The notes under the pieces: model-generated
What the model saw: the letters and a program-made list of their open reading frames with translations, nothing else
Database searches by the model: none
Told to the model about the DNA's origin: nothing
Position numbers and translations under genes: made by a program
Assembly (NCBI GenBank): GCA_031291905.1
Contig: JARLIC010000137.1
Span: 51,762-115,761, forward strand
Direction: 5' to 3'
DNA length: 64,000 bases
Origin: Minisyncoccota bacterium
GTDB taxonomy: Bacteria; Patescibacteriota; Minisyncoccia; UBA6257; 2-01-FULL-56-20
Shown: in pieces, positions 8,385 through 35,864 of the stretch
How the letters are laid out: each line of letters starts with the position of its first letter
How positions within the stretch are numbered: position 1 is the stretch's first letter

Positions 8385-8396
8385 GCGATATCATCC

Positions 8397-13020: not shown

Positions 13021-13165
13021 GATGTGGAACCTCTTGATATGCGGAGGGATGGGAAAAGGCGGGGAACGAACGGGCCGAGGCTCCACGTTGGAACTGGCCG
13101 CCCGGCACGCCCGTCGAAGACGGGGTGTTTTGGAAGTGGGAAGGGGAAGTGGAGGCGAAGCCGCC

Positions 13166-13912: not shown

Positions 13913-13915
13913 GGA

Positions 13916-14257
13916 TCAAGTCTTCTCCTGACACGAAGCCCACCATTGGGCGGCGGGGACGGCCGGGGCGGTGTAGCCGACGACCTGATAGATCCGCGTA
14001 CGTCCCGCGCCGTCGACCCAAACAAGCACGTCTTTTGAACTCAGATCCGCGTCGTCAAGGAAGTAGATTTTCGTCGGATTGAACTCGATAGTCCGATTCA
14101 TTCCAGTTTCATCGCTGGTGTCGACGATCGTCCGGGCCTCTCCGGGCTGAACGAAGCAACGGAGCGATTGCGAGGACGTGGACGACGCGACTCTCGCCCC
14201 GCCGTCCTGATCGGCACCGAACGCATTGTGTTGCACCGTGACCGTATGAGGAGCCAT
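13916..14257 (-). CDS. hypothetical head-tail joining protein
   Basis: ORF 13916..14278 with Met MAPHTVTV at 14257. Small protein between connector-like and neck genes. Confidence 0.4.
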   Translation of the reverse strand: MAPHTVTVQHNAFGADQDGGARVASSTSSQSLRCFVQPGEARTIVDTSDETGMNRTIEFNPTKIYFLDDADLSSKDVLVWVDGAGRTRIYQVVGYTAPAVPAAQWWASCQEKT

Positions 14258-14281
14258 GCGGGCGGAAGGTCGTCTCATGGG

Positions 14282-15529
14282 TTACGCTCGATGGGAAACG
14301 TAGAGGGCGAGATCCTGACGGACGGGGTCCGGGATCGCCAGGTTCATAAGGTCGTTGATCTCGTACGAGTAATAGCCCGTCGACTCTTTCTTGACCGCGT
14401 AATCGAGGTTGATCCGCGAATACACGGTCTTGACGAGGTCGATCGCCGCCGTCTGGATGACCGTCGGGATCGTGGTGAACCCCGCGTCGTAGATCACGCG
14501 GACCACGTCGTTGGAGTGGTCGATGCTGGAGTCGAGACCCTGCATCCAGCCCGGCCCCCACATCGAGCCGAAGCCGTCGCTGAAGCCCACGCCGGGCGTG
14601 ACCAGCAGTCCGGTTCGTCGGTCCAGCCGCGACGTCGACACGTCCTCGCTGAACACCTGGAGCTGGACGCCGTCCGACAAGGCTCCCTGGGAGGTTCCGT
14701 CGCAATAAATTTCCGACACCGGCCAGCGTCCGTAGCCCATGGGGTCGACTGTGGCTTTCCACCCCGAGACCGCGTTGACGGCTGCGGCGAGGTCGTTGAT
14801 CGTCGCGAGGCCGGCGAACAGGATCGGGGTCGACGACGCGATCCCATAGGACGCACCGGCGAGGTTGAGACCCGTGTACGAAACGCTGAATGGGTTGGGG
14901 AGAACCACGTCCACGGTGCTGAAGTCGACGTAGGCCACCTGATAGGCCGAAGGGTCGGCGGTGATCGTGATCGCCGTTCGCGGGCTCCGCGACACGCGGA
15001 CGGCCCGATGCACGGGCATCTCCGAAAGCATCACTTCGCCGTCAAGCGTCGGGCTCAGGTATTCGGTGTACTCGCGTCGTGAAAACGTCCGGTTGCAGTA
15101 GCGGCGGATCTTCTCGGTGACGCCCTGGAGGATCAGCGGCAGCATCGCCACCTTGGCGGGATCGGCCGCGATGTCGGGGTTGAGAGCGAGGGCCGAAGCG
15201 GCCGAAACCAGCACGTCGTATTGCGGCTGATTGCCTGGTGCGGCGACGACTTCCAGAAGCCCGAAGGCGAGTTCGCCGTTGTTCGACGCGAGCCGGACGT
15301 GGACGGCATAGCCGCCGGGGGCGAGTGAAGCCGTTTGAGCGGCCGTCAGCGACAGCAGGATGTTCGGAGGACCGGCCGCCGCGAACGTGGGCGTGAACGT
15401 GATCAACGCCGCGTCGGTCAGCCCAGTGGAGACCGTCGCCGCCAGGATCGCGGTGGACGCGAGCGGGCACGCCGTAACGACGATCGGCGTCTTCGCCGCC
15501 TGACCTTGGACCACCTGCCACGTAAACAT
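14282..15529 (-). CDS. Ig-like N-domain fused to gp6-like head-tail connector domain
   Basis: Middle segment LILQGVTEKIRRYCNRTF resembles the gp6-like connector signature. N-terminal ~100 aa are Ala/Thr-rich and beta-rich. Confidence 0.45.
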   Translation of the reverse strand: MFTWQVVQGQAAKTPIVVTACPLASTAILAATVSTGLTDAALITFTPTFAAAGPPNILLSLTAAQTASLAPGGYAVHVRLASNNGELAFGLLEVVAAPGNQPQYDVLVSAASALALNPDIAADPAKVAMLPLILQGVTEKIRRYCNRTFSRREYTEYLSPTLDGEVMLSEMPVHRAVRVSRSPRTAITITADPSAYQVAYVDFSTVDVVLPNPFSVSYTGLNLAGASYGIASSTPILFAGLATINDLAAAVNAVSGWKATVDPMGYGRWPVSEIYCDGTSQGALSDGVQLQVFSEDVSTSRLDRRTGLLVTPGVGFSDGFGSMWGPGWMQGLDSSIDHSNDVVRVIYDAGFTTIPTVIQTAAIDLVKTVYSRINLDYAVKKESTGYYSYEINDLMNLAIPDPVRQDLALYVSHRA

Positions 15530-19019: not shown

Positions 19020-20669
19020 ATGGCTTGGGATTCAGCGTACTATTCGTCGGTCAACGAAGATCTCTTGCGATTCATCCCGCCGGATAGTAACCGCGTGCTT
19101 GAGGTGGGATGCGGAACCGGGGCGTTGGCCTCGCGGTTCAAGCGGATCAATCCGAAGTGCGTGTACTGGGGAGTGGAGGCTGACCAAGATGCGGGCGAAG
19201 CAGCTCACAATAATCCTGATCTCGATATCATGTTTTCAGAAACAATCGAGCACTTCCTAGGTCGATATCCCACGGAGTGCGAGAATCCCGATTGCGTCGT
19301 ATTCGGCGACTGCCTCGAACACCTTGTCGATCCACACGCCGTTCTCAAGAAATGCGTTGAATGGCTTAAGCCCAACGGCTCCGTCGTCGCCTGCGTTCCC
19401 AATGTTCAGCATTGGAGCGTGATTCAAACACTGATCCAGGGCCAATGGCCTCGAATGGGATCAGGATTGTTTGATGCGACGCATCTCAGTTGGTTCACCA
19501 AGCAAAGCCTGATTGAGATGTTCGAGGCGGCGGGGCTAACTATCGCGAAGATCGTCCCTCGCAATATCGCGCCAGGCGGCGAGCGTCTCATCGACGCCGT
19601 GAAGGAGTTTGGGCTTACCGAGGACGTCGGACGGTTTAGGGAGGGATGCCAGGCGTATCAATGGCTGATCCACGCCGTCAAGGGCGACGTCCCAAGCCGT
19701 AAAGTTCTCATCCGTGGCTTCACCGCCGAAGGATGCTGCGCCCGACCGCGTCTCACGGAGCCGGGCGGAATGATCAATACGATTCCCGGCTTCCGCTACT
19801 CCGAGGTCACGACACAGGTCGAGCCGGGGGAATCCGTGGTCGTTGTACGTCAGCGATTCAACATCACCGAAGCCGCCATCCGCGAACACCTGAAGCACGG
19901 GCAGTTGATTATCGGCGAATGGGACGACGACCCGTGGTACGAAGGGTTCAACGGCAAGCTCAAGACGCCATCCGTCGAATGGGCTCTCAAGGCTTGCCAC
20001 GCGATCCAGGTCAGCACCGAAGCCATCGCCGAACTCGTGCGACCGATCAACCCGAACGTCGCAGTGTTCCCGAATCAGATCGCAGCCGTGGGACCAGAAC
20101 GAGAGTACGTCGAGTCCGACGTAATCCGGGTCTATTTGGGAGGCCAGAGGAATAAAGGCGACTGGGACAAAGTGATCCCCTTCGTCAACGGCATGTCCGC
20201 CGCGAGCCCGGATGTTTTTCACTTCGTCGTCGTGCACGATAGGGATCTCTACCAGGCCCTTGAAACGCATAGGAAGACATTTTACGCCTTCCAGCCTTAC
20301 GAAAAGTATCGGGCCATACTGAGGACGTGCGATGTGACGATTGCTTCTCTAGCCAACACGCGGTTCAATCGGTGCAAGAGCGATATAACCGTAATCGAAT
20401 GCGCGGTGGAAGGCGTGGCCGTGATTCCGTGCAATCCAGAGTCCAGCATGTACACTGAGCTAAGGTCTTGGAAATACAACAAGAAACCAAGCGAGTTCGC
20501 TGAATCCCTTCGCAGCCAGGGACGAAGAGATCGCAGTTGGTCCATCAGCAACCGCATGCTCTGCGACCACTACAAGAAGCGAGCCGCATGGTACGACGGC
20601 TTGCTCGACGACAAGGCTGAATTGGATCGCCAGTTGTTCGAGCGGCTGCCGGAACTTCGTCCTACTTGA
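19020..20669 (+). CDS. class I SAM-dependent methyltransferase fused to GT-B-like glycosyltransferase domain
   Basis: MTase motif I VLEVGCGTGALA and post-I, II and III motifs are present. The C-terminal half has an ..ECAVEGVAVI.. GT-B-like region. GC is lower than in neighbours and the strand is opposite. Confidence 0.65.
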   Translation: MAWDSAYYSSVNEDLLRFIPPDSNRVLEVGCGTGALASRFKRINPKCVYWGVEADQDAGEAAHNNPDLDIMFSETIEHFLGRYPTECENPDCVVFGDCLEHLVDPHAVLKKCVEWLKPNGSVVACVPNVQHWSVIQTLIQGQWPRMGSGLFDATHLSWFTKQSLIEMFEAAGLTIAKIVPRNIAPGGERLIDAVKEFGLTEDVGRFREGCQAYQWLIHAVKGDVPSRKVLIRGFTAEGCCARPRLTEPGGMINTIPGFRYSEVTTQVEPGESVVVVRQRFNITEAAIREHLKHGQLIIGEWDDDPWYEGFNGKLKTPSVEWALKACHAIQVSTEAIAELVRPINPNVAVFPNQIAAVGPEREYVESDVIRVYLGGQRNKGDWDKVIPFVNGMSAASPDVFHFVVVHDRDLYQALETHRKTFYAFQPYEKYRAILRTCDVTIASLANTRFNRCKSDITVIECAVEGVAVIPCNPESSMYTELRSWKYNKKPSEFAESLRSQGRRDRSWSISNRMLCDHYKKRAAWYDGLLDDKAELDRQLFERLPELRPT

Positions 20670-20955
20670 TGATCGCCAGGACGTTCTCTTCTTTCACCAG
20701 AAGCAGCTTCTTGCCGTCGACCTTGAATTCCTCGCCCGCGTACTTCGTGAACAAGACCGTGCGGCCGGGCGAGAAACCGACTTCGATCCGCTCGCCGTTC
20801 GATGCGATCCGACCCGGACCGACCGCCAAAACTGTGCCCTTGTTCGGCCTGTCCTTGGCGACGTCCGGGAGGACGATGCCGCCCTGCGAAACGTCTTCGG
20901 TCGCGTCACGTTCGATGATGCACCAGTCAAGCGTCGGAACGAGAGTCATCAACAA
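20662..20955 (-). CDS. groES: co-chaperonin GroES (Cpn10)
   Basis: GGIVLPDVAKDRPNKGTVLAVGPGR..NGERI...KYAG.E.K.DGK..L..EENVLAII aligns along the full length with the GroES pattern. Confidence 0.85.
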   Translation of the reverse strand: MLMTLVPTLDWCIIERDATEDVSQGGIVLPDVAKDRPNKGTVLAVGPGRIASNGERIEVGFSPGRTVLFTKYAGEEFKVDGKKLLLVKEENVLAIIK

Positions 20956-21410: not shown

Positions 21411-21691
21411 GTGACCAGCGATGCGGGGCGTGCAATCGATTCGGCGGTCTTCTCAGAAAGGATTACATGAGAGAAGACTATCCAGAGCCTTCTGAGAGAT
21501 TCAGCTTTGGGTACTGCCGAGCGATCAAACTCAATCGAATTCCCAATAGCAATGAACCCAGCGGCGAGCCGGATTGCCTCGCGTTCACAACCGACGTAGA
21601 AGACTATTCAGCAGCATTGATGGTTCGCCCCAATTTCGGCTGCGTCCTCTGGGAGCCTAAACGAACACCGGATCTTCCGGCTGCGGATTGA
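21407..21691 (+). CDS. small Cys-rich protein, paralog C
   Basis: ATGA overlap with paralog B. Sequence MSDQRCGACNRF...FGCVLWEPK. Confidence 0.55.
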   Translation: MSDQRCGACNRFGGLLRKDYMREDYPEPSERFSFGYCRAIKLNRIPNSNEPSGEPDCLAFTTDVEDYSAALMVRPNFGCVLWEPKRTPDLPAAD

Positions 21692-22622
21692 GTTGGCGGC
21701 GTAAATCGTCGTACAAAACCTCTTCCCGCATACTCCGCGTCAGCACGTCCTTCACCGCGTGAACGTATCGCGAGTCCATGCCGTCGAGCCCGGCGGCGTG
21801 GCCGCGAAGGTGGGCGTTGGGCATGATCTCCGCCCATAAGCCGAATTGATCGGCCCAGTTCGGCAGATCGTCCATCATGCCGTCGAGCCACTTCAGGAAC
21901 GACTTCTGCTGCTCGGGCTTCTCGACGAGGTTCTGGCGGTAGGATTCGTTCTTGCCGTGGTGTCGCCAGTAACCGATGCGGACGGGGTCGCAGACGACCT
22001 TGCCCTTGCGGCCCATCGCGGCGAGGATCGTTCGTTCGGTGAACAGGTCGCAGTGCTCGGGCACTTCCGCCATCGCGTCGCGGAAGTCCTGGCCGCACCG
22101 GAAGGCGACGGCGGGCGACAACGCCCAGCTTGTGACGTACGCGAACGGCGTCAGCATGTCGCCGTCGATGACCATCGGCCTGTTCCTGAGAAGGTTCATC
22201 GGCACCAGAGGGCCGACACCGGTGAACCACATCGCAAGGTCTTCGTCTTCGGAGATAGCGAGGATCGCGGTCCACGTCTGTGCATCCGCGAACGTGTCGA
22301 AAGCGATGGTGATCCGCTCGCTGTACCGCTCATGGACGATGTCGTCGTCCTGGCACCACGCGAAGTATTCGGCCCCGTCGTCCATCGCCATCTCGGCGGC
22401 TTCACGCCAGTTCTCCCAGAGGCACGTCGCGTCGGTGCGTCGATGGGAGACGAGCGGGTTGTCTTTGTATTGGTGCATCAACTCGGCGGTCGCGTCCGTC
22501 ATGCCCTGATCGGCGACGAGTATCCGGCATGGCGAGATCTGCCCCAAGAGGCATTCGATCGTCTTGCCGAGGAATTCCGTGCGATCCAGGTGCGGGACGC
22601 CGACCGTGAGCTTGGGATGCAT
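21657..22622 (-). CDS. family-2 (GT-A) glycosyltransferase
   Basis: N-terminus LTVGVPHLDRTEFLGKTIECLLGQ...ILVADQG fits the GT2 start pattern. A DxD-like WCQDDD follows. Confidence 0.6.
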   Translation of the reverse strand: MHPKLTVGVPHLDRTEFLGKTIECLLGQISPCRILVADQGMTDATAELMHQYKDNPLVSHRRTDATCLWENWREAAEMAMDDGAEYFAWCQDDDIVHERYSERITIAFDTFADAQTWTAILAISEDEDLAMWFTGVGPLVPMNLLRNRPMVIDGDMLTPFAYVTSWALSPAVAFRCGQDFRDAMAEVPEHCDLFTERTILAAMGRKGKVVCDPVRIGYWRHHGKNESYRQNLVEKPEQQKSFLKWLDGMMDDLPNWADQFGLWAEIMPNAHLRGHAAGLDGMDSRYVHAVKDVLTRSMREEVLYDDLRRQLNPQPEDPVFV

Positions 22623-23190: not shown

Positions 23191-24690
23191 TTAGGAGCCG
23201 AGCGAAAGCTGGACGAAGGGGGACGTCTTGTAGATCACGCCCGAGGGGGACGTCGACTGACGCGGCCCCATCCACAAGGACTTGCCGTCGTGGCGCTGCT
23301 TCCAGCGATACGCGATCTGGTCGGTGTCGAAGAGGAACTGTTCGCTGATCGCGACTTCGATGCCCGAGCGGTTCGCCACGCCGTACTGCGTGGGGTCGAT
23401 GAGCATGATGTCGCCGGTGCCCGAGACCTCAAGCTTTTCGGTCGTGAAGCGGATCGGCAGGCCGAGCAGGGTGCCCGCAGCCTGATACCGCATGCCGGCC
23501 GACTTGGTCCCGGCGATACTGGAAAGCATCGCGGCCTGGGTGATCTGTGAGTTGGGCTGGAACGCAAGGGTGGTGCCGTCGCGGACGTTAAGAAGTTGAC
23601 TGTAGGTCGCCTGGTGGGCGATGAACATCGCGTTCTTAAGACATGACATATCGAACAAGGCCAACATCGCCTGGAGGTCGGCGAGCTGGATCTTGTTCTG
23701 CAACAGGCGGGTCGCCGTGAGCAACGCCGGGCTCTGGCGGATTCCGGTCGGCTTGCCGGCTCCGTCGCCGTTCAGGAACACGAAGTCCGTCTTGTACGCC
23801 ATCGCCTTCAAAAAGAGGCTCTGAAGGACGGTGGCAGCCGAGATGTAGTTGTCGGCGACGAGGTCGCGGGAGATCTGCGTGTAAGCAGTCTGGTCGACGA
23901 TTTTGTACGTGATCTCGCGAAGCTTCGCGTCGGAAGCCTGGCGTTGGGTCGACTCGCCCTTGTAGAAGACCTGGATGCCGGCGGTCGCCGACGTCTGGCC
24001 GATGCCGGGGGCGAAGTACTGGTCCAGGGCGGGCCAGTGGACTTCGTTGGTCGCCCCGACCGGGATGTTGAAGGCGTACGGCTCGATCAGCGACTCTTCC
24101 ATCGCGATCTCGTTGTAGCCTCCGAGAATCTCCGGCTTCACGAAGTAGCCATAGGCGGAGCCGCCGGAAAGCGATTCACTGCCGGCGCGAGCGACGGCGG
24201 GCGACGCGGTCGACATGGAGCCGTCCCATGTCCGCTCCAGCTTGAAGTGCTCGACGAGCCGCTGGTCGGCGTGGTCGCGTTCGCCCTGAGACGCCGACGG
24301 GCGGGTTCGATAGAGCAGCCCGAGGATTTCGCCAAGGCCGCGACCGATCGCCTTGCCGTCCACGCCGCGATCGGCGGGGGATTCGGTGTGCTCGATCGTC
24401 CCGTTGAACGGAACGCCGTCGTCATCGAACTCCATGCCCTTGGACGGAGGGCCTTTACTGGGCTTATTGCCGCCGCTCTGGAGCGAACGCTTGAGGTCTT
24501 CAAGCTCCTTCGTGATCCCGGCGGTGGCGTCACTGAGTTGGCTGCGGACCATCGCGCTGACGTGGGCCTGAGCGTCGGATTCCTCGGCGAATCCGTACTC
24601 GATGTACCCTCGTGCGACCTTCTCGTCCGCGATATCGATCACATCGCCGGCCTTGTGCTCGTCGATGTTCTTCTTGAGCTTCACAAACAT
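23191..24690 (-). CDS. HK97-fold capsid protein paralog with N-terminal coiled-coil (delta-like) segment
   Basis: DLVADNYISAATVLQSLFLKAMAYKTDFVFLNGDGAGKPTGI matches the HK97 major-capsid signature. Start MFVKLKK at 24690. Confidence 0.7.
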   Translation of the reverse strand: MFVKLKKNIDEHKAGDVIDIADEKVARGYIEYGFAEESDAQAHVSAMVRSQLSDATAGITKELEDLKRSLQSGGNKPSKGPPSKGMEFDDDGVPFNGTIEHTESPADRGVDGKAIGRGLGEILGLLYRTRPSASQGERDHADQRLVEHFKLERTWDGSMSTASPAVARAGSESLSGGSAYGYFVKPEILGGYNEIAMEESLIEPYAFNIPVGATNEVHWPALDQYFAPGIGQTSATAGIQVFYKGESTQRQASDAKLREITYKIVDQTAYTQISRDLVADNYISAATVLQSLFLKAMAYKTDFVFLNGDGAGKPTGIRQSPALLTATRLLQNKIQLADLQAMLALFDMSCLKNAMFIAHQATYSQLLNVRDGTTLAFQPNSQITQAAMLSSIAGTKSAGMRYQAAGTLLGLPIRFTTEKLEVSGTGDIMLIDPTQYGVANRSGIEVAISEQFLFDTDQIAYRWKQRHDGKSLWMGPRQSTSPSGVIYKTSPFVQLSLGS

Positions 24691-24843
24691 GGGGTTCTCC
24701 CGATGTTGTCGTGGGTGTTGACAACGCTCGGCGCGGCGAATCTCCAGTCCGCCGGGGAGTCCGCCGCATCTCGAAGACGGGTCGGGCCGGGAACCTGATT
24801 GCTCGTGCGCTGACACGAAACAAAAACGTGTATTAAGATGTCG

Positions 24844-25884
24844 TTACTTGAGAACGACGAAGGGGCCGGCGGTCTGCGAGCCGTCGGCGATCGTGACGGG
24901 CTGCCTCCAGAGCGGCGAGCCGTCGACCCGGAACTTGAACCGAAAGACCGTACTGTCGGTGTCGAACATGAACTCGTCGGCCGACCGCGTCTCGACGAAC
25001 TCGCCGAGTGACCCACAGGTCACGCTCATGTCGGGGTCGCCGTTATTGTCCACGGTGCGGGCCACGAGGGCGTACTGGCTCCAGTCGCCGACGATCAAAT
25101 CGCCTTGCGTCCCGAGTGCGGGGCACTGTTCGACGGGCAGGAGCGGGCGGCCCTTGAGCAACGGGTACGGGTTGCCGTACATCCCCATCGGCATGTACAG
25201 ATTCGCGGGCCAGCCGGTCGTCGTGGCCACGGCGTCGAGCTTCAGCAGCGTGTCGTCGTTGCACATCCACGCCGCGTTGCGACGGCAGTACGGCCAGAGC
25301 CGGCTCCACATCGTGTCGACGTCGGCCTGTGCGATGTTGTTGGAGCCGTTCCGCGTGACCTGGATGCTGGAGTTGGCCGCGATCACGCCGAGCGGGTGAG
25401 TGATCCCCTTGCCGTTGATCATCGACTCGACGACGGCGTACTGGATTTCCTGGCTTGCGGCGTAGTCCAACATTCGTTCGACGAGCGGGGCGTCGGCGAG
25501 CAGGTCGTTGCTGAACGGCGTGGAAAAGACCATGGCTCGCTTGGGGACGAACTTGATCATCGCCGCCGCCGGCTGGCTGGCGTCCGGCGTGGCCGACTTG
25601 TCGTCGGTCGTTCCCTGCCATCGAACCTTGATGCCGCCGAAGCGAGAACCGGCGACGCGGCTGGTTTCGTCCAGTGCGGGCCACTCGGCTTCGTGCTTGT
25701 TGGTCGTCAGGAAGAGGCATCGCGCCAATGGGCCGTCGATCGCACGAGCCTTGTCCCACACCGACTGGAACAGCTCGGTGTCGAGCAGGAAGCCGCCGTT
25801 GGCCCCGCCGCCGTACGTATTCAGTGCGCGGGTGACGTCCGCAAAGTAACGGACGATCGGATTTCCGCTCTGTGCGGTCGTCAT
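24844..25884 (-). CDS. HK97-fold capsid protein paralog (no delta domain)
   Basis: NDLLADAPLVERMLDYAASQEIQYAVVESMINGKGITHPLGVI carries the same HK97 signature in a second, different sequence. Confidence 0.7.
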   Translation of the reverse strand: MTTAQSGNPIVRYFADVTRALNTYGGGANGGFLLDTELFQSVWDKARAIDGPLARCLFLTTNKHEAEWPALDETSRVAGSRFGGIKVRWQGTTDDKSATPDASQPAAAMIKFVPKRAMVFSTPFSNDLLADAPLVERMLDYAASQEIQYAVVESMINGKGITHPLGVIAANSSIQVTRNGSNNIAQADVDTMWSRLWPYCRRNAAWMCNDDTLLKLDAVATTTGWPANLYMPMGMYGNPYPLLKGRPLLPVEQCPALGTQGDLIVGDWSQYALVARTVDNNGDPDMSVTCGSLGEFVETRSADEFMFDTDSTVFRFKFRVDGSPLWRQPVTIADGSQTAGPFVVLK

Positions 25885-25925: not shown

Positions 25926-27071
25926 TTAAGCTTCGCCGCGAAACCAGCCCTTGAGATCCTGGATGCGTTGCGTGTTGGCCTTCTCGAAGTCGTCGATCGA
26001 CCTGAGAGCTTCCTTCAAGATGTCGTCAAGCGGACGGCCGACGAGCGGGGGAAGGTCGGGCCTGGCATCGACGACGGACTCGACTTCCTTGGCGGCCTCG
26101 ATGAATTCGTCGATGGCGGTTTCGACGGCCGACGCGGTTCGCTCGATCGTTTCGGGCTCAACGGCGGCTTGCGTCGCTTCAGGCTCGGGCTCGGGCGTGG
26201 TTCGTTCGACGGCTTCAGGCTTAACGACAGGGACGGCCTCTTCATCGAGGGACCGCTTCTCTTCGTCCTTCATGCACATCTCGACGTCGTCGCCCGCATC
26301 GTCGTCGGCGGATCGCTTCTTCTTTTTCTTCTTCTTGGTCTCGTCGTCTTCGTCGTCGTCCGGCTCATCGGCCTCATCTTCGTCGTCGTCGACCAAGGCG
26401 CCGCCGTCGGCAAGCGTCGATTCGTTCATGCGTTCGACGGGATCGACGCCGGTCAGTGTTCGCCTGACTTCTTCGGGCTCGTTCATCTGTTCAATGATGG
26501 GGTCCACTAGCGGTTTCACATCCTCGTTAGGGGACCAGAAACCACGCACGACGAGCCTTGCAATTGACCTAAGTTCTTGCTGGCTAAGTGCTTCGGGATT
26601 CCCTGGGACGGCCGTGACACTGTACTCCAGAAGCTCGGACGACCGATAAACCAGGTCGCAATTAGCGAGTTCGGGACGCGATCGAATCTCTTCGCGGGTC
26701 GGGACGCTCGCGTCTTTCGGGAGGATCGAGACCGACCAGCCTCGCATCGTGCCATCGCAATACATGTCGAAAAGCTGGGCCGAAAAATCGTCCTTGCCGA
26801 AAATCGTCTTGGCGAGCAGTCGTTCCGTGTTGTCCTTCTCGACCCGAACCCACTGGTTGCGACCAATCGGAAGCGATCCTCGCAGGGGGTCTTTGCCGTG
26901 CTCGAACAGCACAACGGGGTTGGTCCTGTACGCGACAAGGTCGATGCCTCGCGGCTCGATCACGGTCTTGTAGCGATCGACGGCGCGAGTCCCGATCTTG
27001 GCGACGACGGACCTCTCGGCGGGCTTGACGTCGTCAACGACGGCGGCAAAGGAGCGGATGATTTGATTCAT
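25926..27071 (-). CDS. prohead protease (S78/HK97-type) fused to acidic/Lys-rich scaffold-like C-terminus
   Basis: GTMRGWSVSI matches the GxxxGWSxGF-type S78 motif. The C-terminal half is D/E-rich with a KKKKKKK run and coiled-coil character. Confidence 0.7.
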   Translation of the reverse strand: MNQIIRSFAAVVDDVKPAERSVVAKIGTRAVDRYKTVIEPRGIDLVAYRTNPVVLFEHGKDPLRGSLPIGRNQWVRVEKDNTERLLAKTIFGKDDFSAQLFDMYCDGTMRGWSVSILPKDASVPTREEIRSRPELANCDLVYRSSELLEYSVTAVPGNPEALSQQELRSIARLVVRGFWSPNEDVKPLVDPIIEQMNEPEEVRRTLTGVDPVERMNESTLADGGALVDDDEDEADEPDDDEDDETKKKKKKKRSADDDAGDDVEMCMKDEEKRSLDEEAVPVVKPEAVERTTPEPEPEATQAAVEPETIERTASAVETAIDEFIEAAKEVESVVDARPDLPPLVGRPLDDILKEALRSIDDFEKANTQRIQDLKGWFRGEA

Positions 27072-27109: not shown

Positions 27110-27400
27110 TCAGTCGTTGTCGACGACGAACTGGGGCGGGACGTAGCTCGACTCGACCACGTCCTTCACGGCTTCGGTGCCAGTCGCCGGTGCGTGAAAC
27201 GCACCGAGGTCCGACACCGGGAGCCAGATGCCGTCGATGCGGTGATACATCGCGACCGGGAAAGTGCAGGTGATCACGTCGCCCGGCTTGGCCCTAGCGA
27301 TCTCCGTGACGTTATCCTGGAACTTAGCCCGGTCTTCTGCGGTGAGATGGTCGACCGGCGAGACGAGAAGGGGAGGGGGGAGGGGCATGATCAGTTCCAA
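27110..27400 (-). CDS. hypothetical protein
   Basis: 96-aa ORF. Confidence 0.35.
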   Translation of the reverse strand: MELIMPLPPPLLVSPVDHLTAEDRAKFQDNVTEIARAKPGDVITCTFPVAMYHRIDGIWLPVSDLGAFHAPATGTEAVKDVVESSYVPPQFVVDND

Positions 27401-27945
27401 GCCTTGCGGATTCGGTTGAGTTTCGTGAGGCTGGAGAGCATGACTTTGCTCTTTTGTTCAAGGCCGACGTTGTGACGACGTGGGGTTCCGGCTCGGTCGG
27501 TGTGAACTGCTGTCAGGCTGGTTCGCTTCGTGACGCCGACGTTATGCATCGCGTTAGCGGCCGAGATGTGCGGCCGGATATTGGCCTTGATCTTTCGCGG
27601 AGTGTGATTGGGGTTTATGCTGGTTCCAGCCGAGATGTTCGTGCTGACTCCGGCCATCTTGCCCGTGAGAAATGCAGGACCGGCGGCGTTCATCGCAGGC
27701 CGCAAGAAGGGGTGGGGGCGCATTTTCCAGGTGCCGAATTCCTGCGGGATCGCGTGGTTTGTTCCGGCGTAGAGCGTCAGAGTCTTCGTTGCTCTGTCGT
27801 AACGGTAGCCGATCGACTTTTGCAGATCCCCGGAGTCGACGGCTACCATGGTTTCCGCAATCGCCACCATCGCTTGGCCGGCGGCGTGCATTCGTTTTTC
27901 AACGAGGTCGTCAATCCACTTCGTGGGGTTCCACTGGATGCCCAT
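27391..27945 (-). CDS. HK97 gp10-family phage protein
   Basis: SGDLQKSIGY...LYAGTNHAIPQEFGT....PHPFLRPA matches the gp10-family pattern. Confidence 0.5.
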   Translation of the reverse strand: MGIQWNPTKWIDDLVEKRMHAAGQAMVAIAETMVAVDSGDLQKSIGYRYDRATKTLTLYAGTNHAIPQEFGTWKMRPHPFLRPAMNAAGPAFLTGKMAGVSTNISAGTSINPNHTPRKIKANIRPHISAANAMHNVGVTKRTSLTAVHTDRAGTPRRHNVGLEQKSKVMLSSLTKLNRIRKAWN

Positions 27946-27960
27946 CGATCACTCCGCCGC

Positions 27961-28506
27961 CTACGTATGAAGCACATGGAACGGCTTGCGGACGCCGGCG
28001 CTATGGGCTTCGGCCGCTTCCAGCGACAACAGGATCGCCTTCTCTGGAGACTTGAACCCGTCCGACCGCTTCACTGCGTAGAGGCAACCGAGTGCGATGT
28101 CTTGCCCGCAACCCACGGCGTCATATCGATCCAGCGATTCGCCTACCTGGAAATCCGAATCGATCCTGAACAGCCTTCCTTGGAATCCGACGAGGAAGGT
28201 TCCCGCCGATTCCTGGCCCCTGTCGACGCTGAGATGGCCGGCGGATCGAAACCGTTCCCTTACGGCGTCAACGAATCGAGTCACCATGTACTCGTAAACG
28301 TCGTCGCCTTGATGTAGCTTCGGTGGCGTGAATCCGTAGCGAAGGATCTGGCCCATCCGAAACGATGATGTGAAACCGAACAGCATATCGCCGTTCAGGA
28401 ACACTTTCTCGTCGGACCTGACGGTCAGAGACAAGCCGCCGACTGCGGCACTGTCTCCACCGACATAGACGTCTTTGCCGTAAACCAGTCCGGCTATACA
28501 GGTCAA
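27961..28506 (-). CDS. HslV/proteasome-beta-like Ntn hydrolase
   Basis: N-terminus M-TCIAG..GKDVYVGGDSAAVGG....KVF...D.LFGFTSS and later AVGCGQDIALG parallel HslV (TTIVSV...GDGQ..GN..KVR..GFAGG; AIGSGG). Confidence 0.5.
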   Translation of the reverse strand: MTCIAGLVYGKDVYVGGDSAAVGGLSLTVRSDEKVFLNGDMLFGFTSSFRMGQILRYGFTPPKLHQGDDVYEYMVTRFVDAVRERFRSAGHLSVDRGQESAGTFLVGFQGRLFRIDSDFQVGESLDRYDAVGCGQDIALGCLYAVKRSDGFKSPEKAILLSLEAAEAHSAGVRKPFHVLHT

Positions 28507-28528
28507 ACGCGACTCCTGATTGGCATAG

Positions 28529-28762
28529 TTAGACCAGCGGCTTCCGGTCCTCGGACCTCTTGACGAGATAAAAGTCTTCAGTCAAGAGTTCCAACAACTT
28601 GTCGCCGTGCTCGTTTCTTGGGATCGACTCGACCGTGACATGAACGACGTCGTCGTGTTTAGAATCGATGGTGATACGCCGGACAGGAACAGTGATCCCG
28701 AGTGCTTGGGCAAGTTCCTTAAGAAACAAGGCCGGTGCGAATAAACTGGTGACGTTGCTCAT
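28529..28762 (-). CDS. hypothetical protein
   Basis: 77-aa ORF. Confidence 0.35.
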   Translation of the reverse strand: MSNVTSLFAPALFLKELAQALGITVPVRRITIDSKHDDVVHVTVESIPRNEHGDKLLELLTEDFYLVKRSEDRKPLV

Positions 28763-28780: not shown

Positions 28781-29587
28781 TCAAGGAGCGACAATGAACT
28801 CTTCGCCGTCATCGCCAAGACGATACGTCAGGTGACAATGGCAATTTTGTCGGCACTGGCGATCGCCAATACTCCTGAGACTTCCGATCGGAACGAAGCC
28901 TCTCGCGGAGTCTTCCAGGCAGTCCCCGCAGTGTTCGGCTTCTCCAAGGACCAAGCGTTCCTGATCGAACACCATGTTCCTGGCGTACGTCGCTCGGGCG
29001 ATCTCTTGCGAGCAGCCCCAGGCGCAGGCACCGTAGGATTCGGCTCGGGCGATGAATTGATTAGCCGTGATCGGTGCGGGGAAGATGAAGACTTCCAGCG
29101 TCTTGTCCGGATTGAAGGGCTGGGGCCGAAGCATGTCGGCCTGGAAGCGATCGAGGTAGGCGTCTTGCGTTACGGCCTGGCGTTCGGCCTGCTGGAGTTC
29201 ATCACTGGTCAAGGCTCGCGGGCCGAGCAAGCCCATCGCACCGGCGACGATCGATTCGCGGACGAAGCCTTTTATCCGTTTGAAGAACCGGCCCGCTTGT
29301 TCACGTAGAGACCGCCCAACTTGCTCATCTTCGGCTGGGCCGAGAAGACTCCGGCCTTCGTTCCAGTCGAGCTGGCTCCTTGCGAACTGCTGGGCTTCAT
29401 GCTTAATCCACGCTTTGGAAAAAGCACGAATGGCTTCGAGAAGGCGAAGACGCTCATGCCCATCGAGTTGCCCCTTGTTGTAGCGTGCGGTCCAGCCGAG
29501 CTTTTTGAGGACGTGTGCGAGGATCGCTTCGGCCGAAGCCGGCTTGTTCGTCAGCCGCTTGCTTCCGAGGGAAGGTCCACGGACCAC
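28781..29587 (-). CDS. Mu F-like head morphogenesis protein
   Basis: Located directly after the portal gene. C-terminal H...CRQNCHCHL resembles the Mu F domain His/Cys motif. Confidence 0.55.
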   Translation of the reverse strand: MVRGPSLGSKRLTNKPASAEAILAHVLKKLGWTARYNKGQLDGHERLRLLEAIRAFSKAWIKHEAQQFARSQLDWNEGRSLLGPAEDEQVGRSLREQAGRFFKRIKGFVRESIVAGAMGLLGPRALTSDELQQAERQAVTQDAYLDRFQADMLRPQPFNPDKTLEVFIFPAPITANQFIARAESYGACAWGCSQEIARATYARNMVFDQERLVLGEAEHCGDCLEDSARGFVPIGSLRSIGDRQCRQNCHCHLTYRLGDDGEEFIVAP

Positions 29588-31209
29588 GGCAGGTGATCGA
29601 AAGGGTCGCGATCCTCACCCTCCGCTAATCCTTCGACTCCATGAAGCTCCGCATCCTCTTGATCGAGGCCGCCATAAGCACCGCGAAGGCCGTCAGTCCC
29701 GCCATGCTCAAGACTTCGATTGCGGCTTGCATTGGGCTTCTTCTTCTTGTCGTCGCCGCCCTTGGCTTTCGGCTTCTTCTTCACGTCCTTGTTGTTGACG
29801 GCCGGGTTCCCGCCGCCTTCGGCCATTCCGATCGCACCGGCGGTGGCCATCTTGATTGTAGCTTCATTCATCTTAACAATCATCGACAGCGGCGACATGG
29901 TGTTCGGAAGAATCGGCTCGTCCCCCCACGGCACCGGAGGGAGGCCGGTTTCGGCGTTCCTCTGGTTGATCGTGATGCTTCCGTTCCTCAGATCCATGTC
30001 GAATATCTTGGTTTCTTGCTCGCGATCGACCTTGAGCGGGTTGTCGAAAGCGAAGAACAGCCGCCGGTCCCATTGCTGGATCACCCGCGTCAACTTGCTT
30101 GCGATCGACATGCACCGGGGGCTGATCGCCTGCTCGGCGTGCATCTCCTTGGCGGCCTGGAGGTTCGCCAGGTTCGTGTCGGTGGAGAAGAACTCTATCG
30201 GCGTGCCCATCGCGGCGCACATCGCCTGCCAGTCGTACTCGGCGATCTTCAGGCCCGAGAGGTCGGTCGGCGCATAGGTCGTCGGCTGGAAGTTCCACAT
30301 CCCGGTCGTGACCAGGATGCCGCCCTGGCGAGAGCGGGCGTGCTTCATGTTCAGTTCTTGCTCGAACTTCAGCCGCTCGGCGTCGCCGGGCATCGCGTTC
30401 GCGTCGGCGGGCGATGCGATCAGGTTGGGACGAGGCCCTTGCGCCAGGAGTTGCTCCTGGACCGACACGAACTTGTCTTCGAGCTTGGCGTACTCGTAAG
30501 CGGCGTAGAGCGGCGGGTACGACGCTCCGTAAGGGTCTTTCAGGCTCACGCCGTGACCGAAGTAGACGATCTCGTCGGGCTCCAGTCGACTGGCGAAATA
30601 CTGGTAGTGCGACGGAATCGGGGTTCCGGCTGCGCGGACCGGGAGGACGTACTGGCTGAACAGCGGCCAGAATTCCGTGTACGGCCTGCCTTCCGGCCCC
30701 TTGGGGGCGAAGTAAGCACGGCCGATGATGTCGCTGTAGAGCGAGATCATTTTGAGGATGTAGACGAGATCGAACATCCCGTACGGATCGGGATTGTTGA
30801 GCGTGTGGAGAAACGGATGCTCGCGAATCTCTCGAATATTCGCGACGTTCGTTCCATTGCTGGGGACGTACCCCGCGTTCCGCATGTGGCAGAACTGCCG
30901 AAGCGAAACCTCTCGCGGGTCGGAGATGTCCTTCGGCTTCTTGCCGTTCGTCGAGTCCATGTACAACTTGAGCGGAACGGAACTGACGGCGTTCGCGTTG
31001 ATGACGGCACAACTGTAGGCGATCGACTTGAAGTGCTCGATCAACTCGACCGGCGAAGGGGCCGGCTTGGACCGCCACGCGTCCGTGGTCGACGGGCCGC
31101 CGATCCACCCGGTGCCGAGAGAGAATCCCCCAGGGGGTCCAGAGGAGCCTTTACGCTCGACACTGAACGCCGATGCGTCGGCCTGGAGTCTTTCGAGGAA
31201 GCTTGCCAA
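29551..31209 (-). CDS. portal protein
   Basis: 552 aa, located downstream of terminase. Acidic/basic C-terminal tail. Central HPFLHTLNNPDPYGMFDLVYILK segment. Confidence 0.7.
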   Translation of the reverse strand: MASFLERLQADASAFSVERKGSSGPPGGFSLGTGWIGGPSTTDAWRSKPAPSPVELIEHFKSIAYSCAVINANAVSSVPLKLYMDSTNGKKPKDISDPREVSLRQFCHMRNAGYVPSNGTNVANIREIREHPFLHTLNNPDPYGMFDLVYILKMISLYSDIIGRAYFAPKGPEGRPYTEFWPLFSQYVLPVRAAGTPIPSHYQYFASRLEPDEIVYFGHGVSLKDPYGASYPPLYAAYEYAKLEDKFVSVQEQLLAQGPRPNLIASPADANAMPGDAERLKFEQELNMKHARSRQGGILVTTGMWNFQPTTYAPTDLSGLKIAEYDWQAMCAAMGTPIEFFSTDTNLANLQAAKEMHAEQAISPRCMSIASKLTRVIQQWDRRLFFAFDNPLKVDREQETKIFDMDLRNGSITINQRNAETGLPPVPWGDEPILPNTMSPLSMIVKMNEATIKMATAGAIGMAEGGGNPAVNNKDVKKKPKAKGGDDKKKKPNASRNRSLEHGGTDGLRGAYGGLDQEDAELHGVEGLAEGEDRDPFDHLPWSVDLPSEASG

Positions 31210-32886: not shown

Positions 32887-33318
32887 TTAGGCGCCGACTT
32901 CGGTCCAGCGTTCGTCGTCCCAATCGCTCGTCATCGCCTCGTAGGTTCCGTCGTGCTGGGCCGGCGGCGGCGGCTGGATATTGTGCTTGGCCCCGTAGAT
33001 CGCCATCGCACGAACGACGAGCGGCGGCGGATTGCCGGTGGTCGCGGTCAGCGTGTCCCACCACTGGTGCGGGCCGTCTCCCTCGATCGCGACCTGGCGG
33101 CAGAAGTCGCACCGGAGGGCGGCCAGATCGTAGCGTCGCAGGAGTCGGGTTGATCGCTGTGTCGACCGGGTGCAGCGAGGGCAGGGGGGGCCGTCGTGCT
33201 TGATCACGACCTGGACTTCATCGTCCGGCACGTCGGCTTCGACGGCTTCAATAATGGCGTCTTCGGCATCGCGGGGCTTCGGGGGACGGCCGCGACGTTT
33301 GGTCTCGATCGTGCTCAT
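32887..33318 (-). CDS. basic zinc-ribbon protein (KRRGRPPKP; CPRC...CDFC)
   Basis: Overlaps the TerL stop by 4 nt. Confidence 0.45.
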   Translation of the reverse strand: MSTIETKRRGRPPKPRDAEDAIIEAVEADVPDDEVQVVIKHDGPPCPRCTRSTQRSTRLLRRYDLAALRCDFCRQVAIEGDGPHQWWDTLTATTGNPPPLVVRAMAIYGAKHNIQPPPPAQHDGTYEAMTSDWDDERWTEVGA

Positions 33319-35864
33319 GCTACCTCTATGTCCGTGTCATGCCACGAGTCGGGCCACCAGCGGGGGTCTTGCCAATCTTGCTGGGCGGCTCGATCTTTTT
33401 CGATCTTCTCCAGCCACGCCCGCTCCAGCCGTTCGCGTTCCATGCGTTCGCGTTCTTCGGGGGGGATGGCGGCTGGGCCACGCTTCTGGACTTCAAGAGA
33501 GGCGTAGGCGAGCACGTCGACTGTGTCGTCGTGGGCACCGTTAGGAAAGGTCATCAACTCGGTTTCGAGGTTGTCGAGTTCCGGGTGATGCTTGGGAAAC
33601 CAAATCTGACCGGCTTCCATGCGTATCTGGGCGTCTACGCTTCGGGCTATTTTATCGACGTTCCCGGTCTTGAGCGACTGGATCGTCAAGCCTTGCTTTC
33701 GAGCCGCTTTAATGACTAGGTTTTGCGCTGCAACATCTTCGATTCCACAATACGACGCCTTGTGCTTGTCCATCATCGCACGAATAGACGGGACGAGCTT
33801 ATCGCCGGTCATCTGTTCGCGATGCATGTCAAGAAGAATCAGGTCGCTGTCCGGCGTCACAGCCCACGCGCCGATGCATGTGTAGTCCGCACTGGTTCTT
33901 GTAGAAAATGCGAGGTCTACCGCCAGGAAAATTCGGCAGTGATCGAGGCTGAATGATCGTGTTTCAAGCCTGATGTAGTTTTCGTGCCGATCATAGTATT
34001 TGAAATCTGATCGCCGAAATAATCCACCACCCTCGGGGGAGGGGCGTTGCTGATACACAGAATTAAAAAGATGTTTTTGGGTTGCTTTGACACGAAGCAG
34101 GTATTCTTCGTTGAAGTGCTCGGGCCAGAGGGCTTCGCCTCGCTTGCGTCCCATCGGATCGTTATCTTCGGCCAAAGCCGGAAGATTATAGACGACCCAT
34201 TCCTCGCCCGTCTCTTTCGCTCGATCCAGGATCTTGCCGACCATGTCGGCTTCATGCCACCTCTGCATGACGACGACGATCGACCCACCGGGCTCAAGCC
34301 GCGTGTACGCGGTTCCGACGTACCAGTTCCAAGCCTTCTCGCGAAGCGTCTCGCTGAACGCATCCTCTTGCTTCTGGACGTCGTCAAGCACAAGTAGGTG
34401 CGCTCCCTTCCCGAGCAACGCGCCCCCCATGCCGACGGTCTGCATTCCGCCGCTGTGGCCCTTGAGCATCCAGCGATCGGCGGCCTTGCTATCCTGGCGG
34501 ATCTTGACTCCGAAGTATTTCTCGCCGTCCTCTTCGATCAGGTCGCGTACCTTGCGTCCCCACTCGGAAGCGAACTCAGCCTCATACGACGCCAGGATCA
34601 CTTTCTTGTCCGGGTTCCTCCCCAGATACCACGCCGGGAAGTACATCGACGTCATTGTGCTATTGCACGTCGGAATCATCGAGCGGCCACACAAAAACAT
34701 GTGGCTCGGTGAGTCGACTTCGATGCAAACAGTGTCGCCGGTTCCGACGTACGTGGCGCCGATGTATCGGTTCGGCTGCTTAACGCCGTCGCGACATCGC
34801 GGCGACTTCCGAGGCGACTTGCAGGCCCCTGCTTTATAGAACATGACGCGGAATTTGGGTCCGCAATCTTTTCCATAAAGCGTAGCTCTTCCAAGTATCA
34901 GGCTCGCCTTGGTTCCGAGTGAACGAACGAGTTCAAGGCAGCCTTCAGCCAATGCTAGGTCTGTCGAGCAAAACTCGACCTGGCCATCCGGAGCGACATG
35001 GCCATCCGTGTCGCAAAGCCCACGAAGCAACTCAAACCTTTGGCTCTCGCTCGCTCGCAGGTATTGGTTCGGGACATGCTTGTTCTTCAGCAGGCCGAGT
35101 TCGCGAAGCTTTCCGCCAAGGCCCATGACCCCAAATACGTTTTCGACCGACCGATCTCTCGTCTCGTAGCCGAGCCGCGAAAGTTCTTCCTTGAACCACT
35201 CAGTATCCAGGCCGTTGCACGTGATGCCGCAGTTCTCGGAGCAGCCGTTTCCAAGCCAAACACCGAGGACGTACGGGTCGATCGGCAAGTCGGCATCGGG
35301 AAGCTGAAGTGCCCCCTGCTTGCGGACCATAAGCCTCTTGTTTCGAGGCTTCGAGAGATAGGCGGTGTCTTTGACGTGGAATATATCGCGAGTCTTCGCC
35401 TTGCTGACGACCCACTCGTGATTTTGGTCGGCGAAGATTTCATCGCCGTCGTCGGTTGTTACTCGGTAGATCGGGCGGTTCTTCCAGACGGGAGACTTTG
35501 CCACAACGTTACAGGGCTGACCGTCTTCATTAAAGACCTGATCGCCCGGCTTCAGTTCCCCTATCGTCGTCCAGCCGGAAGGCGTCGGGATCGGGGTGCT
35601 CAGGGCTAAGGCTTTCCCGTGCCTCGGTGGCACCGTCACAATTAATCGTTTGATCCGGCCCTCCGCCACATCCATCATCTTCTGCGTCAAGAAGAGAAGA
35701 TGTTTCGCCGGCTTCCACTGAAATTCGCTCGAAAGATGTGCATAGTGCGCGGGGCTCAGGTTCGCTATATGCTTCTCTAGGCTGAATCGCTCCTGCGAGT
35801 TGAGTGAGGCCGCCAAGGAGCGTAAGGACTCGATCTGTTGCGGCGTCTCCATTGAGGTGATCAA
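33315..35864 (-). CDS. terminase large subunit interrupted by an intein
   Basis: N-terminal ATPase region runs through the Walker A up to VTVPPRHGK. It resumes as STMTSMYFPAWYLG.. after ~317 inserted residues. C-terminal RNase-H-like nuclease (FLAVDLAFS...DSDLILLD). Confidence 0.85.
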   Translation of the reverse strand: MITSMETPQQIESLRSLAASLNSQERFSLEKHIANLSPAHYAHLSSEFQWKPAKHLLFLTQKMMDVAEGRIKRLIVTVPPRHGKALALSTPIPTPSGWTTIGELKPGDQVFNEDGQPCNVVAKSPVWKNRPIYRVTTDDGDEIFADQNHEWVVSKAKTRDIFHVKDTAYLSKPRNKRLMVRKQGALQLPDADLPIDPYVLGVWLGNGCSENCGITCNGLDTEWFKEELSRLGYETRDRSVENVFGVMGLGGKLRELGLLKNKHVPNQYLRASESQRFELLRGLCDTDGHVAPDGQVEFCSTDLALAEGCLELVRSLGTKASLILGRATLYGKDCGPKFRVMFYKAGACKSPRKSPRCRDGVKQPNRYIGATYVGTGDTVCIEVDSPSHMFLCGRSMIPTCNSTMTSMYFPAWYLGRNPDKKVILASYEAEFASEWGRKVRDLIEEDGEKYFGVKIRQDSKAADRWMLKGHSGGMQTVGMGGALLGKGAHLLVLDDVQKQEDAFSETLREKAWNWYVGTAYTRLEPGGSIVVVMQRWHEADMVGKILDRAKETGEEWVVYNLPALAEDNDPMGRKRGEALWPEHFNEEYLLRVKATQKHLFNSVYQQRPSPEGGGLFRRSDFKYYDRHENYIRLETRSFSLDHCRIFLAVDLAFSTRTSADYTCIGAWAVTPDSDLILLDMHREQMTGDKLVPSIRAMMDKHKASYCGIEDVAAQNLVIKAARKQGLTIQSLKTGNVDKIARSVDAQIRMEAGQIWFPKHHPELDNLETELMTFPNGAHDDTVDVLAYASLEVQKRGPAAIPPEERERMERERLERAWLEKIEKDRAAQQDWQDPRWWPDSWHDTDIEVA
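34662..35612 (-). mobile_element. intein with LAGLIDADG homing endonuclease inserted in the terminase P-loop
   Basis: Hint N-blocks ALALSTPIPTPSGWTTIGELKPGDQVFNEDG and ..IFADQNHEWVV. Two LAGLIDADG motifs: YVLGVWLGNGCS and LLRGLCDTDGHV. C-terminal block ..VCIEVDSPSHMFLCGRSMIPTCN followed by S. Confidence 0.7.

Follow-up and report, generated by a model that had tools for sequence, protein, structure and literature searches.

A proteasome-family N-terminal-threonine peptidase homologue among the packaging and head genes of a phage-like contig

The window analyzed here, a 64-kb stretch (64,000 nucleotides) of contig JARLIC010000137.1 from a Minisyncoccota assembly, carries an open reading frame (ORF) of 181 amino acids on its minus strand at 27961–28506. 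We identified its product as a proteasome-family (T1) N-terminal-threonine peptidase homologue, AAH-like and belonging to PHROG 1040. Our preferred explanation, which we hold with moderate confidence, is that the protein is a stand-alone accessory Thr1 peptidase of the BPH/HslV-related branch that is expressed late and acts on a specific substrate outside capsid maturation. Five lines of evidence bear on it: the predicted fold, the conservation of key residues, the size of the family, the variable position of the gene and the absence of a partner gene.

Identity, predicted fold and active site

An earlier note on this DNA had proposed an HslV/proteasome-like N-terminal nucleophile (Ntn) hydrolase from the N-terminal motifs, and our results bore this out. 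The ORF occupies exactly the interval named there, its translation (MTCIAGLVYGKDVYVGGDSAAVGGLSLTVRSDEKVFLNGDMLFGFTSSFRMGQ...DAVGCGQDIALG...) begins M-T-C-I-A-G, and the quoted motifs MTCIAG, GGDSA, KVF, LFGFTSS and AVGCGQD were all found. The PHROGs profile phrog_1040, annotated ‘peptidase HslV family’, matched residues 1–157 of the protein (E 2.6e-20). A sequence search of the PDB returned two BPH proteins as the sole matches, with E values of 4.6e-5 (5ovu_A) and 0.027. Pfam, including its Proteasome model, gave no match even at E ≤ 10, and NCBIfam, including its HslV models, gave none. Because these two scans were empty, the identification draws on PHROGs, on the PDB matches and on the predicted fold. 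The PADLOC models of anti-phage defence did not match the peptidase or three of its neighbours (E ≤ 0.1).

An AlphaFold2 model built on a 50-sequence alignment reached a predicted local distance difference test (pLDDT) score of 93.5 and a predicted template modelling (TM) score (pTM) of 0.89. Its strands and helices follow one another as in a proteasome beta-type subunit, with helices H1–H4 at residues 49–57, 70–89, 135–149 and 154–168; the last strand spans 176–180 and nothing follows it, so that the C-terminal H5 is absent. The protein is thus predicted to have the alpha-beta-beta-alpha Ntn-hydrolase fold that proteasome and HslV share. A Foldseek search of the PDB, the check proposed in the earlier note, agreed with that assignment: among 948 matches at E ≤ 0.001, BPH ranked top (TM 0.81, E 1.4e-10), followed by HslV of several species (TM ~0.7), archaeal, bacterial and eukaryotic 20S beta subunits, and Anbu. 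Taken with the sequence matches, this likeness goes well beyond what chance would give. Among the predicted viral structures of BFVD there were 35 matches at E ≤ 0.001, the best with a TM score of 0.94. The closest of these (TM 0.93–0.94), A0A2D1GNJ8 (388 amino acids), A0A2I7R1C1 (288 amino acids) and A0A6G6XWV4 (219 amino acids), far exceed 181 residues. Since they are much longer than the peptidase domain, some phages appear to fuse the peptidase to an additional domain, and the nature of that domain could hint at function.

Conservation of the active site was scored in 270 sequences, comprising 120 close homologues and 150 representatives of clusters at 50% identity. The predicted nucleophile, Thr2 (mature Thr1; codon at 28501–28503, minus strand), was Thr in 263/270 sequences and Ser in 2, with 5 gapped or truncated; the earlier note's expectation that the catalytic Thr would be conserved in homologues was therefore borne out. 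Alignment pairs this residue with Thr1 in the Rhodococcus 20S beta subunit and in BPH. Asp18 (mature Asp17; 28453–28455, minus strand) and Lys34 (mature Lys33; 28405–28407, minus strand) were each kept in 269/270 sequences and align without gaps to Asp17 and Lys33 of the 20S beta subunit. All three residues were invariant in the 50-sequence alignment. Residues 2–41 of the family profile align gaplessly to residues 1–40 of Rhodococcus 20S beta (1q5q_H), which places Thr1, Asp17 and Lys33 in register; this register was read from HMMER alignments to 20S beta and BPH, and MAFFT put Lys33 three columns off that of E. coli HslV.

Other positions of the catalytic site were conserved to differing degrees. 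Gly44, in the GFTSS loop and compared by sequence with the oxyanion-hole Gly47 of the proteasome, and Ser48 were present in 270/270 sequences and Gly132 in 268/270. The G-C-G motif at residues 132–134 aligns with the GSG of BPH, HslV and 20S subunits, and its central Cys133 (28108–28110, minus strand), at the position of proteasome Ser129, was Cys in 231/270 sequences and Ser in 23/270. Glu166 (187/270) and Ser169 (218/270), compared at the level of sequence with the support residues Asp166 and Ser169, were less conserved.

In 239 of the 263 relatives having the catalytic Thr, it directly follows the initiator Met. Because of this arrangement we consider the family to lack a propeptide, and removal of the Met would expose the Thr1 nucleophile. 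The active site is near-invariant among sequences that share only ~50% identity, which argues for a working enzyme; the peptidase is probably catalytically active.

The gene begins with a TTG codon at 28504–28506 (minus strand), followed by ACC for the predicted nucleophile, and a Shine-Dalgarno-like AGGAG lies 6 nt 5′ of the TTG at 28512–28516 (minus strand). This start is 22 nt past the stop of the preceding 77-amino-acid ORF. Among 124 distinct relatives in which the motif was located, start codons were ATG (108), GTG (17) and TTG (8), such that non-ATG starts are a minority within the family. In Moorella phage MTATph1 (OR602862.1, our locus L005), where the gene lies at 8001–8558, the deposited ‘peptidase HslV family’ coding sequence begins at an internal ATG (locus position 8043), and a TTG-Thr-Cys start with a GAGGTGG ribosome-binding site sits 14 codons upstream of that ATG. 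Because the deposited start is the internal ATG, the annotated MTATph1 peptidase is without its catalytic Thr1.

The family is large. A word-indexed search returned 2,068 homologues, and an exhaustive profile search returned 7,885 clusters (50% identity) at E ≤ 0.001, with 2,688 at E ≤ 1e-30. Using tblastn we found members in 205 phage records, including ~150 T5-like Salmonella and Escherichia phages and large phages of Vibrio, Xanthomonas, Ochrobactrum, Geobacillus and Moorella; annotations in phage records include ‘peptidase HslV family’, ‘Ntn hydrolase-like’, ‘proteasome subunit’ and ‘threonine-type endopeptidase’. Viral contigs gave 288 matches, and the best 80 genome loci include Rhizobium, Ensifer, Mesorhizobium, Azospirillum, Streptomyces, Frankia, Dactylosporangium, Paenibacillus and Telluribacter. 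Close relatives thus span alpha-proteobacteria, Actinobacteria, Firmicutes, Bacteroidetes and phages. The earlier note had called a second, proteasome-type protease in a capsid cassette unusual. That judgement does not stand for a family so large and already catalogued, whose members have been published as phage proteasome homologues; the peptidase is a typical member of it and no new kind of protein.

Phage-borne proteasome homologues of two groups, AAH and PPH, were described by Fuchs, Alva and Lupas (2021; PMC8665760), who found that both radiate from BPH inside a compact ‘group I’. AAH proteins, whose published representative is WP_035979212, have H1–H4, no insertions and no S12/H5, and occur in alpha-proteobacteria, Actinobacteria and many phage genomes, and via phages also in Firmicutes and Bacteroidetes (PMC8665760). 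The peptidase resembles them in being a compact subunit without propeptide, insertions or H5 that keeps H1–H4 and Thr1/Asp17/Lys33, and the taxonomic range of its relatives matches the published AAH distribution. AAH is accordingly the best fit, a match made by described features and distribution. PPH proteins, which comprise ~140 residues and are without helix H2 (PMC8665760), share with the peptidase a phage-borne, stand-alone and BPH-related character, and PHROG 1040 appears to cover both AAH and PPH. Because the peptidase has 181 amino acids and a confident H2 (70–89), it is not a PPH as described. The 2021 study gives neither an analysis of genomic position nor a function for AAH (PMC8665760).

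BPH (PDB 5ovs, 5ovt, 5ovu) was the best PDB match by both sequence and structure and has the same M-T-C N-terminus. In BPH the Met is removed, as seen by mass spectrometry, Thr1 is exposed and epoxomicin is bound; BPH forms tetradecamers and has no partner unfoldase. Identity is only 19–22%, position 129 is Ser in BPH and Cys in the phage protein, and the pore loop after H2, long and highly acidic in BPH, is not markedly acidic in the phage protein (loop 88–102, SAGHLSVDRGQESAG). Moreover, the BPH gene lies in stress-regulated bacterial operons, whereas the peptidase gene is phage-borne.

HslV (ClpQ), the peptidase part of the ATP-dependent protease HslUV, forms dodecamers; it has the same fold (TM ~0.7) and a similar size, and its Thr1 is likewise exposed by Met removal. 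However, identity to the phage protein is ~13–19% and no hslU, a gene usually located in the same operon, is nearby. We rejected HslV in the strict sense, since the curated models failed to match, the nearest structure was BPH, and no HslU-like partner was found in the window or beside relatives. With Peptidase_S78 (HK97 gp4 type) the peptidase shares a class of operon position, between portal and capsid, but the S78 fold is unrelated and its chemistry is Ser/His.

Genomic position among relatives and the search for a partner

To place the gene in its family we compared 80 viral-contig loci, 80 genome loci, loci from exact-protein look-ups and three cultured phages. Their ORFs were clustered, and hidden Markov models (HMMs) were made for the recurrent neighbours, namely portal, capsid, large terminase (TerL), S78 and a small HNH endonuclease. 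Dereplication at 90% identity left 127 groups, 124 of them with usable flanks, and a viral/metagenomic subset of 74.

Results showed that the peptidase gene lies inside the TerL-to-capsid block in 12/124 groups (11/74 in the viral subset), less than 3 kb upstream of the block in 19/124 (14/74), and 3–8 kb upstream in 12/124 (8/74). It was downstream of a head gene in 6/124 groups (4/74), and the head gene was far away or on the opposite strand in another 6/124 (4/74). No recognized head gene was present within 10 kb in 69/124 groups (33/74), a class that is an upper bound because head-gene detection covered few families. An apparent ~3-fold enrichment near the packaging/head block is suggestive. 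Inside or near the block, the peptidase gene was always co-directional with it.

The junction occupied within the block differed among lineages. The gene falls between TerL and portal in six loci (L025, L027, L034, L060, L065, L068), between TerL and an S78-capsid fusion in three (L026, L079, L158), and between a portal or portal-MuF gene and a protease or capsid gene in the window, L020 and L059. Pfam confirmed the portal-MuF and S78-capsid fusions of relatives. In L020 and L059 (56–57% identity) the peptidase immediately follows a portal-MuF fusion gene; in L020, S78 and then capsid come next, and in L059 no protease was recognized before the capsid gene. Other relatives are in replication regions, beside ParB_N or AAA_25 genes. 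In cultured phages its neighbours are early genes or small ones without a characterized role: in Moorella phage MTATph1 and Psychrobacter phage D'Alembert the gene stands among small uncharacterized genes, and in a T5-like phage it lies between thymidylate synthase and RNase H in a nucleotide-metabolism region. We concluded that the genomic position of the peptidase gene is not conserved among phages.

A separate pattern was seen in bacterial chromosomes. Rhizobial loci (L102–L139; Rhizobium, Ensifer and Sinorhizobium) share a syntenic, lineage-wide neighbourhood with an SDR oxidoreductase and no recognizable head genes, and Azospirillum loci (L138–L172) have a second syntenic, lineage-wide neighbourhood of the peptidase gene. 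This suggests that the two sets are old, possibly domesticated insertions. The ORFs picked in these Azospirillum and Rhizobium islands had almost no Pfam or PHROG matches and are probably spurious frames in high-GC DNA. For family members of Rhizobium/Ensifer and Actinobacteria, Fuchs et al. saw no evidence of phage transmission (PMC8665760). One prophage-like locus (L012) carries a Thoeris-type pair (SIR2_2/STALD and ThsB_TIR, 13023–14938) ~4.5 kb downstream of the peptidase.

The earlier note had also suggested looking for a cognate HslU-like partner, and none appeared in scans of the window, which covers 64 kb of a contig of at least 119 kb, or as a recurrent gene in the 173 loci. A six-frame Walker-A scan of the window gave two matches, neither a credible P-loop ORF: at least one runs antisense to a predicted gene, and no predicted gene shares its frame with either. 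Pfam searches of ten large ORFs of the window found no AAA+ protein; they identified an RNA ligase, a beta clamp, a C5 methylase, ThyX, DUF5131, RNase T and SSB. All-against-all clustering of ORFs from the 173 loci revealed no recurrent partner or ATPase beyond the head/packaging genes and the HNH endonuclease, and the remaining top neighbour clusters were antisense ORFs overlapping the peptidase gene. Within the window and these loci, the peptidase is a stand-alone module without a phage-encoded unfoldase or conserved partner.

Genes around the peptidase

All of the genes that surround the peptidase are on the minus strand, and the order of transcription is TerS, TerL, portal, a 268-amino-acid ORF, a 77-amino-acid ORF, the peptidase, a Neck1/gp10-like gene, a 96-amino-acid ORF, a 381-amino-acid ORF and two capsid genes, with tail genes further along. 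Around the peptidase, genes are separated by gaps of 15–41 nt or overlap, and promoter-like and terminator-like sites in our scan occurred at chance-level frequency; for these reasons co-transcription of the peptidase with the head genes is likely. A replication and nucleotide-metabolism region with SSB, beta clamp, C5 methylase, RNA ligase, RNase T and ThyX lies elsewhere in the window, in which no tRNA or Rfam features were found.

Upstream of the peptidase, the large terminase (33315–35864, minus strand; phrog_38, E 8.8e-109; Terminase_6N/6C and LAGLIDADG_3) has an intein-like insertion. Terminase domains occupy only residues ~402–823 of this 849-amino-acid ORF, and residues ~49–322 match intein-carrying profiles and the LAGLIDADG_3 homing endonuclease; from these matches it looks like an intein inserted near the N-terminus of the terminase ATPase. 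The portal protein gene follows (29551–31209, minus strand; Pfam Phage_portal, E 2.4e-21; phrog_2662). The 268-amino-acid ORF (28781–29587, minus strand) stands after the portal gene, at the place of a MuF-like minor head protein. Given its match to phrog_24776 (E 1.3e-9) and its overlap with the portal stop, this frame is probably the real gene; automatic gene calls on the identical Logan contigs (L001, 9199–9669) skip it and call antisense ORFs instead. It had no Pfam match, and in hhalign only a 12-residue C-terminal CxC motif paired with MuF, at a probability of 1.8%. The 77-amino-acid ORF directly upstream of the peptidase (28529–28762, minus strand) belongs to no known family and was found only in this phage.

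Directly downstream of the peptidase is a gene for a 184-amino-acid Neck1/tail-completion protein (HK97 gp10-like; 27391–27945, minus strand; phrog_5, E 3.5e-14). This gene precedes the prohead protease and capsid genes and is not placed after them with other connector genes. The 381-amino-acid protein (25926–27071, minus strand; phrog_11321), encoded 0.9 kb downstream of the peptidase, was recognized as an S78-like prohead protease with hhalign and a custom S78 HMM. Its residues 32–161 aligned to a profile made from 17 S78 proteins of relatives' loci (probability 83%, E 8.9e-6) with the catalytic His and Ser matched, and its C-terminal half is acidic, Lys-rich and scaffold-like. Pfam gave no match to this protein, and the S78 label is moderately supported. 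On the strength of the profile alignment we consider that the phage has a conventional prohead protease, and the S78 role is therefore filled here by this protein. Regarding the earlier note's placement of the peptidase between portal/MuF genes and an S78 prohead protease, the portal upstream and the S78-like and capsid genes downstream were found, the S78 assignment with moderate support, and the MuF label was left unconfirmed.

Two HK97-type major capsid paralogues end this array, one of 346 amino acids (24844–25884, minus strand; Pfam Phage_capsid, E 9.1e-25) and one of 541 amino acids (23191–24816, minus strand; Phage_capsid, E 2.3e-26). These tandem paralogues are only 25% identical (BLASTP E 1e-15), and the second has an N-terminal extension of ~220 amino acids; it would be uncommon for a capsid to consist of two divergent paralogues, or of a capsid protein plus a derivative serving as decoration or scaffold. 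In the region separating head from tail genes, precomputed Pfam results for the identical Logan contig gave a Cpn10/GroES homologue (20662–20955, minus strand), a 549-amino-acid multi-hit SAM methyltransferase (19020–20669, plus strand) and a family-2 glycosyltransferase (21657–22622, minus strand).

The identical protein at NCBI is listed as a hypothetical protein of a ‘Candidatus Pacebacteria bacterium’ metagenome-assembled genome, on a contig of 119 kb. Because the window has 55–66% GC and is entirely phage-like, the contig is probably a mis-binned phage contig. When the portal protein was compared by tblastn with 50,697 phage records, nothing matched at E ≤ 1e-5, and that collection therefore holds no close cultured relative.

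Possible functions of the peptidase

Under our preferred explanation of a stand-alone accessory peptidase, the protein would be made without a propeptide. Once the initiator Met is cleaved off, Thr1 would be exposed and would work together with Asp17, Lys33 and a Gly-lined oxyanion hole, in the manner of the proteasome. Judging from BPH and HslV, the peptidase probably assembles into a double-ring homo-oligomer with internal active sites. The tight co-directional array from portal to capsid points to late transcription with the head genes, and the most likely activity would be cleavage of a different, specific protein or peptide, of host or phage origin, in the course of infection. Because an S78 protease is present here and in most relatives examined, and because the position of the gene is not conserved, the peptidase is unlikely to be the head-maturation enzyme.

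Several observations weigh against this explanation. The gene appears enriched within packaging/head blocks or a short way upstream of them (25/74 viral groups), and three lineages share the order portal(-MuF), peptidase, protease. Where the proteasome has Ser129, most members of the family have Cys. With 64 kb of a contig of at least 119 kb scanned, a distant ATPase partner also retains some probability. BPH, the nearest characterized relative, is inert on standard substrates, and our literature search found no functional or biochemical study of any phage proteasome homologue (AAH or PPH); for these two reasons, activity as a protease is something that we infer from conservation.

The placement of the gene favours a dedicated head-assembly protease, one that, beside S78, would act on portal, MuF, scaffold or some other part of the head by processing or removing it, or would itself be packaged. 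In the window the peptidase lies with the portal and 268-amino-acid ORFs on one side and the protease and capsid genes on the other, all of them forming a single tight, co-directional array; in L020 and L059 it directly follows the portal-MuF fusion; in three lineages its neighbours are TerL and an S78-capsid fusion, in others TerL and portal; and altogether 31/124 relatives carry it within the block or less than 3 kb upstream. Yet no head gene was recognized within 10 kb in 69/124 relatives, many relatives are in replication or early regions beside ParB_N or AAA_25, and the T5-like nucleotide-metabolism placement and the Moorella and Psychrobacter small-gene placements, together with a junction that differs between lineages, count against a head function. 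Canonical S78 proteases stand beside the peptidase in most cases examined, and the family also occurs in the syntenic Rhizobium/Ensifer chromosomal islands and in Actinobacteria. We rejected the peptidase as a replacement of the prohead protease for L020, L026 and L079, in which S78 or S78-capsid fusions are present, a rejection that does not extend to L059. The head-maturation or scaffold-removal role that the earlier note had raised is likewise disfavoured by the phage's own S78-like protease and by a position inside the head block in only 12/124 groups, at three different junctions. Because the gene appears over-represented at packaging/head blocks, a head-related role retains some probability, but we consider a dedicated head-assembly protease improbable. 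We are slightly more doubtful still of a narrower version, for which the recurrence directly after portal or portal-MuF genes in at least three lineages speaks: in some temperate phages the peptidase would belong functionally with the packaging/head operon and be a late-acting protease or even one packaged in the capsid and ejected. If this were true, it could process a minor head protein or a host target at entry, and virion-associated Thr proteases of this kind would form a new class.

A different role would be that of a hijacking core protease, which docks onto a host AAA+ unfoldase (HslU/ClpY or another) and redirects ATP-dependent proteolysis. The closeness of the structure to HslV (TM ~0.7), the lack of a phage-encoded ATPase in the window scans and the name ‘HslVU peptidase subunit’ that some source databases give to relatives are consistent with docking of this kind. 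On the other hand, the nearest structure, BPH, has no unfoldase partner, and the HslV and Proteasome models of NCBIfam and Pfam fail to match. In addition, close relatives abound in Actinobacteria, a group from which HslV is missing in Table 1 of Fuchs et al. 2021 (PMC8665760), and so dependence on host HslU cannot be general. Overall, we regard hijacking as unlikely, although it is the least unlikely of the alternatives. A sequence-specific protein ligase or transpeptidase in place of a degradative protease has a precedent in archaeal connectase, a proteasome fold acting as a ligase, and BPH-type proteins show no bulk protease activity. Connectase, however, has an S3/S4 insertion as its signature and is without the first helix pair, whereas the phage model has no two-helix S3/S4 insertion (between strands 20–23 and 26–29) and keeps H1 and H2 and thus both helix pairs; the protein also groups with BPH and HslV, not with connectase, which makes a ligase very unlikely. 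Least probable of all, to the point of being almost negligible, is a catalytically dead structural remnant. The Cys in place of Ser129 and a literature without demonstrated activity for any member would fit such a pseudo-enzyme, but in 270 sequences with only ~50% identity Thr1, Asp17, Lys33 and the glycines hardly vary, which argues for selection on catalysis.

Proteasome homologues carried by phages are abundant, with thousands of clusters; T5-like phages have them, as do many large phages and the prophages of rhizobia, actinomycetes and Firmicutes. For this family the present data offer two leads, namely that the peptidase stands alone as a module, with its active site fully conserved and no unfoldase encoded by the phage, and that its gene is inclined to lie at the beginning of the late packaging/head operon or within that part, though it is not confined to the place. 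Together, these leads narrow the hypotheses to a late-acting, specific protease rather than a capsid-maturation enzyme.

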